Shown here in pieces: positions 19,816 to 26,033 of a stretch of DNA of 64,000 nucleotides. Origin of the DNA: Armatimonadota bacterium (GTDB taxonomy: Bacteria > Armatimonadota > UBA10988); assembly GCA_016235455.1 (NCBI GenBank), contig JACRKZ010000031.1:1-64000 (forward strand), read 5' to 3'. The first letter of the stretch is position 1. Each line of letters opens with the position of its first letter. The translations under genes were made by a program, and so were the position numbers. The notes beneath the pieces are model-generated. The model had not been told where the DNA came from and ran no database searches. It was given only the letters and a program-made list of their open reading frames with translations.

Positions 19816-20820
19816 CTACTCCCAGTCGATCACGCCGCCGACCAGCCCCGGGACGCCGCCGTGGTTGATCTGCTCGTAGAACGCGGGCGAGTCCACGGCC
19901 TTGACGCGGTGCGTGACGACCTCGGTCCACGGCAAGGCGCCGCTGGCCATCATCTTGAGCACGGCGCGCCGACACGGCGCCTGGCCGTCATCGCACGGGT
20001 AGTACCAGGTCAGCCGCCGACCGTGCGCGGGCAGGAACGAGTAGGTGATGGGCGCCGCGCCGTAGTTGCCCTGCAACACGAACCCGCCCAGCGTGCGCGC
20101 CAGCGGGATGGTGACGTCGAGGCACGCGGGGATGCCGGTGCACTCGAAGACCGTGTCGGCGCCGGCCGGCACGATAGCCCTGACGGCCTCCTCCAGGTCG
20201 ATGCCCTTGGCGTTGATCAGGTGGTCGGCGCCGAACCGGGCGGCCAGCGCCAGCGCCTCGTCGGCGATGTCCACGGCGATGACCTTGGCCCCACGCAGCA
20301 CGCTGAACGCCACCACGCCCAGGCCGATCTGGCCGCAGCCGTAGACCAGCACCGTGGAACCCATGCGCGGGTTGGCCATGTCGACCCCGGCCAGGCCCAC
20401 CGCGGGCATCACATACAACGAGGCCGCGTCGAGATCGCAGCCGGCGGGCAGATGGGCCAGGCCATGCGTCTCACCCGGATGGATGACCGCGTGCGCGCAG
20501 TGCGTGCCGGCTACCGCCGAAACCGGCGTGCCGTCGGCCAGCGCGATGTGCTTGCCGTCGCGGTAGTAGACCAGGTCGCCCACCGCGAAGCCCTCGACGT
20601 TCTCGCCGGCCTGCTCCACCACGCCGACCGCCTGGTAGCCAGTGCACAGCGGGTAGGGGCCCCAGTCGAGCTTGCGGCGGATCAGCGCGAACTCCGTGCC
20701 GATGCTTACGCCGCTGCGCAGTGTGCGCACCAGCAGCCGGTCAGGCCCGGCCTCGGGCAGTACCACCTCGGCCAGGCTGAACGCCTGGTTCTCATCACAG
20801 ATCAGCGCCTTGGACGTCAT
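19816..20820 (-). CDS. Medium-chain (Zn-ADH-like) dehydrogenase
   Basis: SGVSIGTE, GYQAVGVV, GCGQIG Rossmann motif, DTVFECTG; start MTSKALI after an AGAGG RBS. Confidence 0.85.
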   Translation of the reverse strand: MTSKALICDENQAFSLAEVVLPEAGPDRLLVRTLRSGVSIGTEFALIRRKLDWGPYPLCTGYQAVGVVEQAGENVEGFAVGDLVYYRDGKHIALADGTPVSAVAGTHCAHAVIHPGETHGLAHLPAGCDLDAASLYVMPAVGLAGVDMANPRMGSTVLVYGCGQIGLGVVAFSVLRGAKVIAVDIADEALALAARFGADHLINAKGIDLEEAVRAIVPAGADTVFECTGIPACLDVTIPLARTLGGFVLQGNYGAAPITYSFLPAHGRRLTWYYPCDDGQAPCRRAVLKMMASGALPWTEVVTHRVKAVDSPAFYEQINHGGVPGLVGGVIDWE

Positions 20821-20929
20821 CCTCTTGGCTCCCGGCCTGTGGGTTGTCCCAGCCCCGCCCAACTCCTCCCAGGCGTCGATCACCAGGGGTTACAGCCCGC
20901 GGTCCCCATGCTGCCGGTCGCCTTGCTAC

Positions 20930-20966
20930 TTGCAACGTTGTCGCACTGCCATCGCGGCTCTAGACT
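20930..20966 (+). promoter_or_regulatory. Sigma70-like promoter (TTGTCG-N17-TAGACT) with overlapping imperfect palindrome
   Basis: -35 at 20938-20943, -10 at 20961-20966; dyad TGCAACGTTGTCGCA over the -35. Confidence 0.5.
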
Positions 20967-20989
20967 GCCTCCTGAGGACGGAGCGCGCT

Positions 20990-23083
20990 ATGTCGTCAGC
21001 CGCGGAGCAGAGCCCCACGCAGACCTGCGAATGGCAGGTCGCGGGTCTCGACTGCCCCAACTGCGTGGCCATGCTGGAGAAGGCCTGCCGGGCCGTGCCG
21101 GGCGTGGTGCAGGTGCAGGCCCATCTGACCTCGGGTCGGCTGACAGCCACGGTGGGCCAGCAGTTCGACCCGACGGCCCTGGAAGCGGCCGCGCGGCGGG
21201 CCGGGCATCCGCTGAGCGCGGTTTCGCAGGCGCCACCGCCGGTGCGCGCCGACCGCCTGCTGGTGGTGTCCAGTATTGCTCTGGTGGTTGGCTTCGCGCT
21301 GCAGCTCGCCGGCCAACCGGCCACGCCGGCCTATGCCGTGGCGGCGCTGCTGGGCACGACGCGGCTGGTGCCGCTGGCGCTGGCCGCGCTACGCATGCGC
21401 ACGATCACCATCGATGCGCTGATGGTGTTGGCGCTGTTCGGCGCCATGGGCCTGGGTGACTGGTTCGACGCGGCGCTGCTGGCGGTGCTCTTCGCCGTGG
21501 CCGAGGCGGTGGAGGCGGCCAGCCTGAGCCGTACCGGGCACGCGGTGCAGTCGTTGTTGGCCCTGGCGCCGCGCATGGCCCGCGTGGAATGCGGCGACCG
21601 GGCGCTCGAAACGCCGGTGGAGGCGGTGCAACCCGGCCAGATCGTGCGCGTGCGGCCCGGCGATGCCATTCCGCTCGACGGCCTGGTGCTCGACGGCGCG
21701 GCGGGCGTCGACGAATCGGCGATGACCGGCGAGAGCGTGCCCGTGGCCAAGTCGCCCGGCGACCGCGTCTATGCCGGCACGATGGCGCTCGACGGCGCGC
21801 TGCGCGTGCAGGTGACGCAGGTGGCTGGCGACTCCACGCTGGCGCGCATTGTAGCGCTGGTGGAGCAGGCGCAGGACACCGCCTCGCCGACCCAGCGGGT
21901 GGTCGACCGCTTCGCCGCGTGGTACACGCCGCTGATCATCGCACTCGTCGCGGCGGTGTGGATTCTGGGGCCGATCTTTGGCCTGGCCTTCCGCGATGCC
22001 TTCCTGCGCGGCACGGTGCTGCTGGTCATCGGCTGTCCGTGTGCCATCGTCATTGCCACCCCGGTGGCCATCTACAGCGGCCTGACCGCCGCGGCGCGGC
22101 GCGGCATCCTGGTCCGCGGTGGTGAGGTGCTGGAGCGCGCCGCGGGGCTCAAAGTGGTCGCCCTCGACAAGACCGGCACGCTGACCATGGGCCAGCCGCG
22201 GCTGGAGCGCATGGTCTGCCTGGACGGCCTGGCCGAGGACCGTGCGCTGGCCATTGCCGCCGCCCTGGAGGCGGACTCCTCCCACCCGCTGGCAGCGGCT
22301 ATCAGCCGCGCGGCCCACGAGCGCGGCCTGGCCGTGTCGCCCGCCGGCGAGCATCAGGCGGTGCCTGGCCGCGGCGTGATGGGCTCGGTTGATGGCGAGC
22401 GGTTCATCCTCGGTGGTCGCTCGCTGCTGGCCGAACTGGGCGTCGACCCCGCTCTGGCGCTGCCTGTGTGCGATGCCTTCGAGCACGATGGGCTGACGCC
22501 GGTCATCCTGGCCGACGGTCAACCGCTGGCGGTGTTGGGCCTGGCCGACCGGCTGCGCCCGGAGGCGGCCGAGATGGTGGCCGCGCTGACCGCATCGGGC
22601 CTGGCACGACCGGTCATGCTCACCGGTGACCGCCGGCGCCCGGCCGAGGCCGTGGCGCGGCTGGTCGGTATCGAGGACGTGCGCGCCGAACTGCTGCCGG
22701 CCGACAAGCAGGCCGAACTGGCACGGCTGCGGCGGATCGGCCCGACGGCCATGGTCGGCGACGGCATCAACGACGCGCCCGCCCTGGCCTCGGCCGACGT
22801 GGGCGTGGCGCTCGGCGCGGTGAGCAGTGCCATCGCCCAGGAGACGGCCGACGTGTCATTGTTGGGCGCCGACCTGCGCGGCGTGGCGCGGCTGGTGGCG
22901 CTGGCCCGGCGTGTGCGGCGCACCATCGGCTGGAACATCGCCATCGCCATCGGCATTCGGCTGGTCCTCGTGCCGCTGGCGGTGATGGGTTGGGCCGATT
23001 TGTGGCTGGCCATCCTCGGCGATGTGGGCGGCTCGCTGGCCGTCACCGCCAACAGCCTGAGAATCCTGCGCGCCGACATCTGA
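20990..23083 (+). CDS. Heavy-metal translocating P1B ATPase (ZntA/CadA type)
   Basis: N-terminal HMA GLDCPNC; TGES.P; CPC in a TM helix; DKTGTLT; SSHPLA; MVGDGINDAPALA. Confidence 0.93.
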   Translation: MSSAAEQSPTQTCEWQVAGLDCPNCVAMLEKACRAVPGVVQVQAHLTSGRLTATVGQQFDPTALEAAARRAGHPLSAVSQAPPPVRADRLLVVSSIALVVGFALQLAGQPATPAYAVAALLGTTRLVPLALAALRMRTITIDALMVLALFGAMGLGDWFDAALLAVLFAVAEAVEAASLSRTGHAVQSLLALAPRMARVECGDRALETPVEAVQPGQIVRVRPGDAIPLDGLVLDGAAGVDESAMTGESVPVAKSPGDRVYAGTMALDGALRVQVTQVAGDSTLARIVALVEQAQDTASPTQRVVDRFAAWYTPLIIALVAAVWILGPIFGLAFRDAFLRGTVLLVIGCPCAIVIATPVAIYSGLTAAARRGILVRGGEVLERAAGLKVVALDKTGTLTMGQPRLERMVCLDGLAEDRALAIAAALEADSSHPLAAAISRAAHERGLAVSPAGEHQAVPGRGVMGSVDGERFILGGRSLLAELGVDPALALPVCDAFEHDGLTPVILADGQPLAVLGLADRLRPEAAEMVAALTASGLARPVMLTGDRRRPAEAVARLVGIEDVRAELLPADKQAELARLRRIGPTAMVGDGINDAPALASADVGVALGAVSSAIAQETADVSLLGADLRGVARLVALARRVRRTIGWNIAIAIGIRLVLVPLAVMGWADLWLAILGDVGGSLAVTANSLRILRADI

Positions 23084-23171
23084 AAACCTGGGAACCGCAG
23101 TATGCCCAGCGGACACCCTTGCCGCTACCGAGGCCGAGAAGCAAGGGCGCCTCGCGAGGAGACAAGGGAAC

Positions 23172-23612
23172 ATGAAGCGGTTTTTGTTGATGGCGGGCGT
23201 GGTGGTTGCGACTCTGGCGTGGATGACGGCGACGAGCCCCGCGGGTGCGGCCGATGCCGCCACCTGCAAGTGCAGTCCCTGTAAGTGCAGCCCCTGCAAG
23301 TGCGCCGAGACGCCCGGCAAGTGTGCCTGCGACCCCTGCAAGTGCACTGACTGCAAGTGCGCCGACAAGCCGGCCGCTGCCGGCACCGCCGCCGCGCCTG
23401 CCGCCGGCTGTGCCATGGGCGCCTGCCCGATGGGCGCCGCGGCCGCCGCCCCCAAGGCCATGGCCTGCTGCAGCACCGGCAAGCCCACCGCCTGCTGCAA
23501 CGGCAACTGCGCCGAGTGCTGCAAGGGCAAGTGCAGTGAGTGCTGCAACGGCGGCGCCTGCCGCGGCTGCGACAAGAAGCACGACGCGGTACGCACCAAC
23601 ACCATCAAGTAG
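23172..23612 (+). CDS. Secreted cysteine-rich metallothionein-like protein
   Basis: AAGGGA RBS; signal peptide; 26 Cys in 146 aa arranged as six CxC units and a CC-rich second cluster; directly after the P1B ATPase. Confidence 0.75.
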   Translation: MKRFLLMAGVVVATLAWMTATSPAGAADAATCKCSPCKCSPCKCAETPGKCACDPCKCTDCKCADKPAAAGTAAAPAAGCAMGACPMGAAAAAPKAMACCSTGKPTACCNGNCAECCKGKCSECCNGGACRGCDKKHDAVRTNTIK

Positions 23613-23638
23613 CGCGAGCGCGAAGATAAACGAACACG

Positions 23639-23670
23639 CGAGGGCCGGCCCCGAACGGGACCGGCCCTCG
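23639..23670. terminator. Hairpin between convergent genes (possible bidirectional terminator)
   Basis: CGAGGGCCGG...CCGGCCCTCG, a 10-bp perfect arm pair. Confidence 0.55.
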
Positions 23671-23688
23671 TGCTGTCTGGGACGGTGC

Positions 23689-24918
23689 TTAGCCGCCGGT
23701 GAGCTTTTTCCAGAACGACGCGCGCGGCTTGAGCGCGGCGATCTGGGCATCCTTGCGCCACAGCGGGTCGTTGGCGTGGCGCTCGCCCCAGGCCAACCAG
23801 ATCTTGGGCGGGAGGCAATCGCGCAGGGCCATGAGCGCGCCACAGATGGTGCCGGACTCGCCCGCGCCCATGAGCTGCGACGGTGTGCCGCTGCCCAGCA
23901 GCGCGTGGGCCATGGCGTTGCGGCTGGCCAGATGGGGCAGGACCGAGTTGATGCGGTCGGCGTGGCCGCTCAGCGAGTTGGTCACGGCGTCCGCGGCCTG
24001 GGTCCAGAGGATGTCGAGCATCTCGGCATCGCCGTGGCCCAGTGGCATCTCGATGCCGCGGCGCGCGGTGGTCAGCAGCATCTGGTAGCGGTTGAGCAGC
24101 GGCCAGTTGCCGGCGGCCAGGCAGCTCAGCACGAAGCCGCCATAGGCGGTCTCGGCCACGCGCGGCTGCGTCTCCATCGGCGGGCGCGAGGGATCGGGCT
24201 CCAGCTCGAACACCACGTAGTCGCCCAGCTTCTTGGGTGCCTGGGCATGGCTGGGCACGGCCATCAGCCGGTACCGGTCGCGCAGCGCGTCGGCCTGGAC
24301 AAAGTGCGTGTCGAAGGTCATCGCGGGCCGGTCGTCGGCGGCCACCATGTAGTACAGCGCGCGCATGATGCTGCGCTGCTGCTTAGCGCCGGCGATGAGT
24401 AGGATGGGCTTCTTGGTGCCCTCCACCACGGACAGCACGAGGTCGTTGAGGAGCTGCTCCGGCAGTGCCTTCAGCGCCTCGAACGGCGCGGCCGTCGGCG
24501 TGACCTTGAGCTGCTGTGGCGGGAGCGCCTTGGGATCGCTGAGCTGCGCGCCATGCGGCAACGGGATCTCGTCCAGCAACAGGAACGCGTCGCTGTTGAC
24601 CAGGTCGAGCGCGTCGGCGTCGAAGATCAGATGCCGCGTGAGGTGGCTGGCATGGCCGTCCGGGCTGACGCCGATGACGCCGGTGCGACCCACGGCAAAG
24701 CGCCCCGAGGCGAGCTTGACGAACGTCTCTCGCAGCGGCGGCGTCACGCCCGCCTGGAGCGCCGGGTGGTAGCAGATCAGCTGCTCGAGCTCGCGATACT
24801 CCAGCGATGTGGCCACGTCCTTGCCGCAGGCGAAGGTCTGGTAGCCAGGACCGCGACCGGACTCGATGCCGCGAGGCACATTGGCATACAGATGCTGATC
24901 GACCGTGATTGTCGCCAT
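23689..24918 (-). CDS. Hypothetical protein, GAP1-N2/GAP1-M-like
   Basis: N-terminal QHLYANVPRG..GPGYQT...DGHASHLTRHLI and central RPAMTFDTHF resemble GTPase-associated protein 1 domains; amphipathic C-terminus SFWKKLTGG. Confidence 0.5.
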   Translation of the reverse strand: MATITVDQHLYANVPRGIESGRGPGYQTFACGKDVATSLEYRELEQLICYHPALQAGVTPPLRETFVKLASGRFAVGRTGVIGVSPDGHASHLTRHLIFDADALDLVNSDAFLLLDEIPLPHGAQLSDPKALPPQQLKVTPTAAPFEALKALPEQLLNDLVLSVVEGTKKPILLIAGAKQQRSIMRALYYMVAADDRPAMTFDTHFVQADALRDRYRLMAVPSHAQAPKKLGDYVVFELEPDPSRPPMETQPRVAETAYGGFVLSCLAAGNWPLLNRYQMLLTTARRGIEMPLGHGDAEMLDILWTQAADAVTNSLSGHADRINSVLPHLASRNAMAHALLGSGTPSQLMGAGESGTICGALMALRDCLPPKIWLAWGERHANDPLWRKDAQIAALKPRASFWKKLTGG

Positions 24919-25046
24919 AAACTCTGGACCCCTTTCGCACAGCTTACACCATCATACATCGTGCTCCCAACGCCTGGGCCAGGCAGGGAGTTCGCGCCGC
25001 GGGGCGTATGGTCTGTCGACGCGCGGCGGCGCGGCGGGAGTCGGCT

Positions 25047-26033
25047 GTGTGGAATGTAGTGTGCATCGGCCTCAAAGGCCACCAGGGAGTCTGCCTGAGC
25101 GAGATTGCCAAGCGGCCGGACGCGCGGCTGGTGGCCGTCTACGACGATGATCCGGCGGCGTTGCGCGGCGCGAGTCGGTTGCCCGGCGCGAGCGCCGAGA
25201 CGCTGATCACCCCCAATCTGGACGAGGTGTTGGCCCGGCGCGACGTGAACGTGGCCATCCTGGCCGAGGACAATGCCTCGCGCGGGCACAATCTGATCGA
25301 GTGCGCGCGACGCGGGTGGCACCTTTGCGCGGAGAAGCCGCTGACGCTGGATCTGGCCGAACTGGCCCGCGTGCGCCAGGCGATCACCGAGGCCAAGGTC
25401 AGCCTGACCATGCTGCTGACCATGCGTTTCGAGGCGCCCTACCGGGCCATGCGGCAGGCCATCGCCGACGGTGCCGTGGGTCAGCCGCTCAACCTCTCTG
25501 GCCAGAAGAGCTACAAGCGCGGCGACCGTCCCGCCTGGCAGCAGAACCCCAAGACCTTCGGCGCCACCATCCCGTACATCGGCATCCACCCCATCGACCT
25601 GCTGCATTTCACCACCGGCTGCCGCTTCAGGCGCGTGGCGGCGTTGGCGCACAACGCCGGGCTGCCTGGCTCAGGCCGCATCGACGAGAGCTGCGCCGTG
25701 CTCCTCGAGACGACCGACGGTGCCGTGGCCAGCGTGCGGCTCGACTACCTGCGGCCCGACAAGGCGCCCAGCCACGGCGACGATCGCATCCGCGTGGCCG
25801 GCTCCACTGGCGTGATCGAGGTGCTCGACGGCAAGGTCAACCTGATTACCGCCAAGCAGGCGCCCACGGTGCTGCCGACCACGCCACCACCGAATCTGTT
25901 CGGCCAGTTTCTGGACTCCCTGGCTGGCGGCCCGGCCCATGACATCAGCACCGACGAGTGCTTCATGCTGACCGAGGTGGTGCTACGCGCCCAGGAAGCC
26001 GCCGTGCGCGGCACCTGGGTCGATATACCGTAG
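25047..26033 (+). CDS. Gfo/Idh/MocA family oxidoreductase
   Basis: HLCAEKPL and GIHPIDL motifs; GTG start after GGGAG. Confidence 0.88.
   Translation: MWNVVCIGLKGHQGVCLSEIAKRPDARLVAVYDDDPAALRGASRLPGASAETLITPNLDEVLARRDVNVAILAEDNASRGHNLIECARRGWHLCAEKPLTLDLAELARVRQAITEAKVSLTMLLTMRFEAPYRAMRQAIADGAVGQPLNLSGQKSYKRGDRPAWQQNPKTFGATIPYIGIHPIDLLHFTTGCRFRRVAALAHNAGLPGSGRIDESCAVLLETTDGAVASVRLDYLRPDKAPSHGDDRIRVAGSTGVIEVLDGKVNLITAKQAPTVLPTTPPPNLFGQFLDSLAGGPAHDISTDECFMLTEVVLRAQEAAVRGTWVDIP

Follow-up and report, generated by a model that had tools for sequence, protein, structure and literature searches.

The window analysed here, the whole stretch of 64,000 nucleotides of bacterial DNA, carries a 146-codon open reading frame at positions 23172–23612 of the plus strand, directly downstream of a P-type ATPase gene. 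Its predicted product combines a putative export signal with two dense blocks of cysteine. This raises the question of whether bacteria may export a metallothionein-like protein that receives the ions expelled by a metal pump, as an earlier note on this DNA had proposed, or whether the cysteines of this protein serve another purpose. We approached this question through the reading frame itself, the neighbouring genes, homologous and look-alike proteins, and the redox and modification genes of the source genome, which is 93% complete with 0.84% contamination.

The cysteine-rich gene and its product

The frame at 23172–23612 is intact. Its GC contents at the first, second and third codon positions (GC1, GC2 and GC3) are 0.503, 0.694 and 0.905, respectively; GC3 of the adjoining ATPase gene is 0.894, and the window as a whole has a GC content of 69%. 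A GAGGAG ribosome site (23156–23161) is found 10 nt 5' of the ATG. Because of the high GC3 and this ribosome-binding site, we conclude that 23172–23612 is a genuine coding gene. Public runs belonging to two studies, one of groundwater (2020) and one of freshwater (2025), yielded contigs that contain the stretch, and a 504-nt contig from the second study spans 23127–23630 with 0 differences. No RNA runs were found among the public runs holding the locus, and an Rfam search of the window returned nothing.

The first 26 residues (23172–23249) read as a signal peptide, as the earlier note had it, and are predicted to be of the Sec (SPase I) type. K2 and R3 are accompanied by a hydrophobic stretch of 17 residues, and A-G-A precedes the predicted cut after residue 26; this n/h/c layout is kept in the homologue P0002, described below. 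Neither a twin-arginine nor a lipobox Cys could be read in the N-terminus. Signal cleavage would leave a mature protein of 120 residues, with a mass of 11.7 kDa and a pI of 8.45. Its first domain (domain 1, residues 32–63; 23265–23360) holds 12 Cys in six CxC units, CKC in five cases and CAC in one. An Ala/Pro-rich linker (residues 64–98; 23361–23465) with two Cys and three Met (C80, C85, M82, M87 and M97) connects this domain to domain 2 (residues 99–133; 23466–23570), which has another 12 Cys, including four CC pairs. The remainder (23571–23612) consists of a 13-residue C-terminal tail, ending in R-T-N-T-I-K, and the stop codon. Counting residues reproduces the two-domain architecture that had been described for this protein and gives a total of 26 Cys.

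Both Cys blocks are built from short repeats. Tandem Repeats Finder locates a 15-bp repeat within domain 1 (23263–23303; 2.7 copies, 88% matches), in agreement with the earlier description, and a 24-bp repeat within domain 2 (23468–23552; 3.5 copies, 77% matches); the latter is present as claimed, but begins at 23468, 25 bases ahead of the position of 23493 given for it. The mature protein is 21.7% Cys and contains neither Phe, Trp nor Tyr, and a single His. In a crudely predicted gene set from this genome, Cys makes up 1.0–1.45% of residues, and the next Cys-richest open reading frame reaches 9.2%. The Cys content of the mature protein is far above chance. AlphaFold2, run on a two-sequence alignment, yielded no confident fold (mean pLDDT 45.5, pTM 0.22), a prediction that would speak neither for nor against metal-dependent folding.

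The upstream ATPase and the layout of the locus

The gene upstream (20990–23083, plus strand; 697 aa) had been taken for a Zn/Cd-type ATPase, and profile searches uphold this assignment. It scores 490.5 bits against TIGR01512 (Cd family), above the cut-off of 313.5, and 384 bits against TIGR01511 (Cu subfamily), under the cut-off of 397; E1-E2_ATPase and Hydrolase matches were obtained with Pfam. P1B-2 ATPases are recognized by CPC in TM6, N-x7-K in TM7 and D-x-G in TM8. The translation displays an N-terminal HMA-like GLDCPNC, CPC, N-x7-R and, near the C-terminus, D-V-G (D-x-G). By profile and motifs, the upstream gene belongs to the P1B-2 (Zn/Cd/Pb-type) P-type ATPases. In TM7 (window 22990–23010), Arg replaces the usual Lys in this ATPase and in three same-family orthologues (L027–L029), and the Lys of N-x7-K is retained in six more distant ATPase relatives.

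A spacer of 88 nt (23084–23171), which holds the GAGGAG site, separates the ATPase gene from the cysteine-rich gene on the same strand. This spacer shows no terminator-like site, and no sigma-70-like promoters were found in 20500–25200. Downstream, a GC-rich hairpin (23639–23670) with 15-nt arms, 93% complementary, lies between convergent genes and is likely their shared terminator; the 60-nt stretch around it has a predicted energy of −36.7 kcal/mol. The convergent neighbour (23689–24918, minus strand) has weak matches to PF20013 (24.2 bits) and PF20014 (14.2 bits), and its weak similarity to GTPase-associated protein 1 (GAP1) is confined to the N-terminal and middle domains. Elsewhere in the part of the window that was examined (1643–41632) lie sulfatase, glycoside hydrolase, esterase and housekeeping genes; neither a metal regulator nor a further metal gene was seen in this range, and none is adjacent. 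This layout suggests that the ATPase gene and the cysteine-rich gene form a two-gene unit and would be co-transcribed.

Close homologues and distribution

A word-indexed search of about 5.8 billion proteins returned two matches, one of them a weak CxC match and the other P0002, a protein of 134 residues whose gene sits on a 1079-base contig and which is the sole true homologue. P0002 was also the only match in an exhaustive phmmer search of 1.84 billion representatives. The two proteins are 70% identical overall; in the mature part, 25 of 25 aligned Cys are identical versus 51 of 81 non-Cys positions. All 12 Cys of domain 1 and all 12 of domain 2 are identical, and the R-T-N-T-I-K tail is conserved. 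The linker of P0002 is 14 residues shorter and lacks C80, and a C-P-M-G motif in the linker is common to both proteins. A profile search (alignment A3) gave 7 matches and added P0005, a 107-residue call on a 1014-base contig, in which the C-terminus of a GMC oxidoreductase follows domain 1 and the first part of the linker; P0005 would be either a fragment, an assembly chimera or a rearranged locus. The ESM Atlas contributed unnamed clusters only, with scores of 0.83–0.84 that lie under the level counting as more than a lead.

We found no paralogue of the cysteine-rich protein in its own genome, and no credible homologue in 40 related genomes; 5 additional genomes, identified through loci, likewise lacked a credible match, the one at 1.2e-5 having a stop. 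Eleven ATPase loci were inspected in relatives, including three same-family orthologues with 53–59% identity, and none of the 11 has a Cys-rich open reading frame within 1.5 kb downstream of the ATPase; the cysteine-rich gene would therefore be a lineage-specific addition. The coupling to the ATPase that the earlier note proposed is mirrored in the 88-nt, same-strand, terminator-free arrangement at this locus, but not in the loci of relatives, and the link to the ATPase rests on a single case.

Comparison with metallothioneins and other metal binders

The cysteine-rich protein matched no Pfam or NCBIfam family at E ≤ 1 and no PDB chain at E ≤ 10. Metallothioneins are defined operationally as small, Cys-rich proteins without aromatic residues that carry CxC and CC motifs and form metal–thiolate clusters. 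Measured against their usual features, the mature protein has 26 Cys in 120 residues, inside the range of about 15–30% Cys in CxC, CC or CxxC, and its lack of aromatic residues and lone His agree with the rule of no aromatics and few or no His. At 11.7 kDa, it is larger than the classical metallothioneins of 6–7 kDa; its length lies inside the range of 99–181 residues that PMC4862169 gives for ciliate metallothioneins. By composition, the protein fits the operational metallothionein criteria, and by sequence it falls into no curated family.

The clusters of animal metallothioneins are M3Cys9 and M4Cys11. With the animal proteins (vertebrate beta and alpha domains) and the ciliate family-7 metallothioneins, the cysteine-rich protein shares a high Cys content, an absence of aromatics, Lys residues beside Cys, the placing of a CxC-rich part ahead of a CC-rich one, and repeat-built modules. 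Unlike both groups, it is bacterial and has a predicted Sec signal peptide, and no homology to them is detectable. It differs from the animal proteins further in having 12+12 Cys instead of 9+11, and a 35-residue Ala-rich linker that contains Cys and Met. In ciliate metallothioneins, CKC is described as dominant in the Cu forms and CC/CCC motifs in the Cd forms (PMC4862169).

Among bacterial proteins, SmtA/BmtA (PF02069) and MymT are likewise small, Cys-rich metal binders tied to metal resistance, according to PMC7558416. In contrast to what is predicted for the cysteine-rich protein, they are cytosolic and single-domain, and SmtA has a zinc-finger-like fold with His ligands. PF02069 gave 0 matches in the source genome, the control being positive in Synechococcus elongatus. 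The earlier note had stated that characterized bacterial metallothioneins are cytoplasmic; this agrees with PMC7558416, where SmtA and MymT are counted among cytosolic copper binders, but the title of PMC11237414 reports Pseudomonas PmtA on the cell surface. With the exception of PmtA, the literature on extracellular metallothioneins that we found was mammalian throughout. In the literature searched, which lay outside subscription journals, no bacterial metallothionein was described as natively exported, the nearest report being that on bufferins (PMC11626156), and within that literature an exported metallothionein-like protein encoded behind an efflux pump is undescribed for bacterial metallothioneins.

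A different kind of exported, Cys-lined, multi-ion thiolate store is Csp1, which is exported through Tat as a pre-folded four-helix bundle (PMC7558416). The cysteine-rich protein, in contrast, has K-R rather than a twin-arginine, no predicted bundle at a mean pLDDT of 45.5, and no family match. SilE/PcoE and CusF are periplasmic metal sponges or chaperones. Together with ZraP, they resemble the role considered here in being periplasmic and in binding metal delivered by efflux systems. Their ligands, however, are Met, His or carboxylate groups instead of cysteine arrays, and they have no sequence relation to the cysteine-rich protein.

Periplasmic redox setting

Profiles for DsbB, VKOR and DSBA gave 0 matches each in the source genome; in 14 reference genomes serving as controls, DsbB was positive in 6, VKOR in 3 and DSBA in 8. 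Two DsbD_TM genes, encoding CcdA/DsbD-type reductant transporters, are present. About 2.6 kb from one of the CcdA genes lies a single marginal, partial match to Thioredoxin_4 (23.7 bits versus a cut-off of 23.2). This match and the 93% completeness leave room for a possible unrecognized oxidase, and air oxidation is likewise possible. Predicted exported Cys-containing proteins (a crude set, n = 767) have no bias toward even Cys counts (384 even versus 383 odd) and cytosolic proteins gave 980 even versus 1035 odd in the same count, a weak indication obtained with a home-made gene caller and signal-peptide rule and no positive-control genome. The missing DsbA, DsbB and VKOR, along with the two CcdA/DsbD-type genes, suggest a lineage without enzymatic periplasmic disulfide formation. 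The genome also encodes a CzcA/CusA-family RND pump (1209 bits), and because of its presence a periplasm and an outer-membrane exit route are implied.

This setting bears on the possibility that the protein is exported and disulfide-bonded and binds no metal, serving a structural, adhesive or protective role with cystines as in granulin-like or insect antifreeze-like repeats. A granulin module has 12 Cys. Domain 2 matches this count, with its four CC pairs, and a repetitive, Cys-rich protein with predicted export and an even Cys total of 26 would suit such a role. However, the CxC and CC spacing, the loops of 2–7 residues and the lack of any aromatic or large hydrophobic residue are those expected of a thiolate cluster rather than of a disulfide core, and the homologue P0002 has an odd number of Cys (25). 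No Pfam family, granulin included, matched the protein, and AlphaFold2 gave it no confident fold. Considering also that DsbA, DsbB and VKOR went undetected in the genome, we regard a disulfide-bonded, metal-free protein as improbable.

Distant signal-peptide and CxC proteins

More distant proteins were collected by pattern scans for a signal peptide and CKCxxCKC arrays, confirmed by tblastn. The best pairwise values were 33% identity with an E of 6e-13 over residues 1–108 and 39% with an E of 5e-9, and the similarity of these proteins to the cysteine-rich protein is partly compositional. In an Acidobacteriota family (L014, L015, L016, L022, L126, L133 and P0004), the resemblance extends to the signal-peptide core and to a C-[PG]-M-x-A-N motif that follows the CxC block; the C-P-M-G motif in the linker of the cysteine-rich protein resembles the C-G-M-T of this family. 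Genomic contexts were read from Pfam scans of 64 and 79 neighbour open reading frames (143 in total).

The Acidobacteriota CxC gene is divergent from genes for a histidine kinase and a sigma-54 response regulator. Upstream of it lies a TGGCA[TC]-N5-[GA]TGC (GG-N10-GC) element, about 95 nt 5' of the ATG in L014; an exact-pattern scan matched this sigma-54-like element in three loci (L014:2981–2995, L022:7900–7914 and L015:1164–1178, aligned in A2), and its conservation is not independent, since the Acidobacteriota loci are close kin. Near these genes we found YHS proteins (L014, L016 and L022), CusB/HlyD-type proteins (L022 and L133) and a ZIP transporter (L133). The layout resembles, by analogy, that of zraP and zraSR; ZraP is described as having a sigma-54 promoter and as divergent from zraSR (PMC4987338). 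Elsewhere, a signal peptide and CxC block appear fused to YHS (L132:6983–7765, 75.4 bits in two matched stretches; L137:7001–7636, 65.7 bits in one matched stretch), in a Tepidiaquacella MAG and an Ignavibacteriaceae MAG. According to PMC4626032, copper ATPases contain YHS and TRASH modules, for which metal binding is proposed. From their domains and neighbours, the YHS fusions and the ZraSR-like contexts suggest a connection with metals.

In the L024/L138 family, L024 is located near AhpC/TSA, DsbD_TM and thioredoxin genes, with ArsP and an ACR3-like SBF gene 5–7 kb off. The Pfam neighbour scans revealed no metal gene near L023, L025, L135, L139, L140 or L123/L134, and L139 has no signal peptide. 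In all, a clear metal link is seen in 3 of about 10 families with readable context, the window included, and a weak link in one more. The search of homologues and neighbourhoods that had been put forward as a check on a metal function gave a divided answer: some distant CxC families are linked to metals, but several have no metal gene nearby.

The context of L024, with its thioredoxins, AhpC/TSA, DsbD_TM, ArsP and ACR3-like SBF gene, would suit a periplasmic thiol buffer or scavenger of reactive oxygen, electrophiles, arsenite or mercury, for which the adjacency of the ATPase would be incidental. Oxidant scavenging by metallothioneins is known from the literature, and the ATPase link is unconserved in relatives (0 of 11). 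At the locus itself, however, the 88-nt same-strand gap and the shared terminator suggest co-expression with a metal pump, and among the distant proteins the YHS fusions and ZraSR-like contexts indicate metals. We therefore consider a scavenger of this kind unlikely.

Two further observations concern the CxC proteins as such. About 6 of 10 families with a signal peptide and CxC array end in a C-terminal Lys (the cysteine-rich protein, P0002, P0003, the L014 family, L024/L138, L025 and L135). Braun's lipoprotein is tethered through its C-terminal Lys. The shared residue might be due to chance in Lys-rich proteins, or might be a tethering signal like that of Braun's lipoprotein. Metagenome contigs from Prevotellaceae and related rumen or gut sources (L013, L017–L021, L122, L124, L125, L127–L131 and L136) encode a multi-pass membrane protein of about 300 residues with C-terminal CKCxDCKC arrays. 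It looks like the cytochrome b subunit of succinate dehydrogenase/fumarate reductase, in which case a respiratory membrane subunit would carry a metallothionein-like tail.

Enzymatic modification of cysteines

The protein might also be a RiPP precursor like those of bufferins or oxazolins, exported through Sec and with its Cys turned enzymatically into copper-binding heterocycles. Bufferin precursors, among them a BUF_6/12Cys group, are reported to have Sec signal peptides and conserved Cys, to accumulate in the periplasm, where they complex excess metal, and to protect against copper (PMC11626156). The cysteine-rich protein shares the Sec signal peptide features, the conserved Cys and the predicted periplasmic site. 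It differs in that bufferins, as described in PMC11626156, need MNIO and DUF2063 proteins from genes next to that of the precursor and use thiooxazoles to bind metal, and are small folded proteins with 4, 6 or 12 Cys, as opposed to the 26 in CxC/CC arrays here. The neighbours of the cysteine-rich gene are the ATPase and the GAP1-like gene instead of these partners. MNIO (PF05114) and DUF2063 gave 0 matches each in the 93%-complete genome, with a positive Caulobacter control, and no such modifying enzyme was found among the neighbours in the window or the 143 neighbour open reading frames of the distant relatives; nor did any NCBIfam precursor family match. The lack of MNIO and DUF2063 argues against a bufferin-type modified peptide, which we disfavour as very improbable.

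That the frame is a spurious or non-functional product of tandem repeats in GC-rich DNA is hardly credible: its sequence is indeed repeat-built, with one close homologue and one fragment only and no RNA run holding the locus, but the GC3 of 0.905, the ribosome-binding site, the conservation of the whole architecture and of 25 of 25 aligned Cys at 70% identity, and the identical sequence in a second study all speak against it.

Discussion

We hold it to be somewhat probable that the cysteine-rich protein is exported and, with its thiolates unmodified, serves together with the ATPase as a metal sink or acceptor. The earlier proposal, in which an exported protein of metallothionein type binds metal and is coupled to the ATPase, is partly supported. 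All computable points fit it: the make-up of the protein and its Sec signal, the operon-like arrangement of the genes, the lack of Dsb and RiPP-modifying genes, and the metal-linked look-alikes.

An exported metal sink of this kind could work as follows. The ATPase gene and the cysteine-rich gene would be expressed as one transcription unit, as their layout suggests. The unfolded apoprotein would pass the inner membrane via Sec and lose its 26-residue signal peptide; export in the apo form would fit the role of a sink, because metal would be acquired only where the pump delivers it. Judging from the gene content, we propose that the 26 Cys are kept reduced, because DsbA, DsbB and VKOR went undetected and CcdA/DsbD-type reductant transporters are present. 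Each 12-Cys domain would then fold around soft metal ions as a metal–thiolate cluster, with perhaps 3–4 divalent ions per domain by analogy to M3Cys9 and M4Cys11, and the Cys/Met motif of the linker may serve as an entry or hand-over site. In this manner, the protein would buffer metal expelled to the periplasm, limiting its re-entry and the damage it causes. More speculatively, it may hand metal over to the outer-membrane-spanning HME-RND pump, the gene of which lies at another place in the genome. As to the identity of the metal, the type of the pump argues for Zn, Cd or Pb. By analogy to the ciliate proteins described in PMC4862169, Cu(I) might also be accommodated by the CKC motif and by the linker with its Cys and Met.

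A wider reading is plausible, if short of probable, on the sequences compared here: bacteria without a periplasmic disulfide-forming system may export true, unmodified metallothioneins. The window gene would then belong to an undescribed class of CxC-array proteins, exported through Sec and scattered over Acidobacteriota, Ignavibacteriota, Planctomycetota, Armatimonadota and the source lineage, which would form extracytoplasmic metal–thiolate clusters and act as periplasmic acceptors for efflux systems, the P1B-2 ATPase here and ZraSR-like modules and YHS fusions elsewhere.

The known periplasmic metal buffers use Met or His ligands, a Cys-lined, pre-folded bundle (Csp1) or enzymatically modified Cys (bufferins). 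If the metal-sink reading is true, thiolate-cluster chemistry would be usable in the bacterial periplasm, tied to the absence of Dsb oxidation. The protein would also represent a missing periplasmic partner for Zn/Cd/Pb P-type pumps, as CusF is for copper. Finally, a small, repeat-built protein with a predicted high metal capacity would lend itself to capturing metal at the surface or in the periplasm of bioremediation strains.
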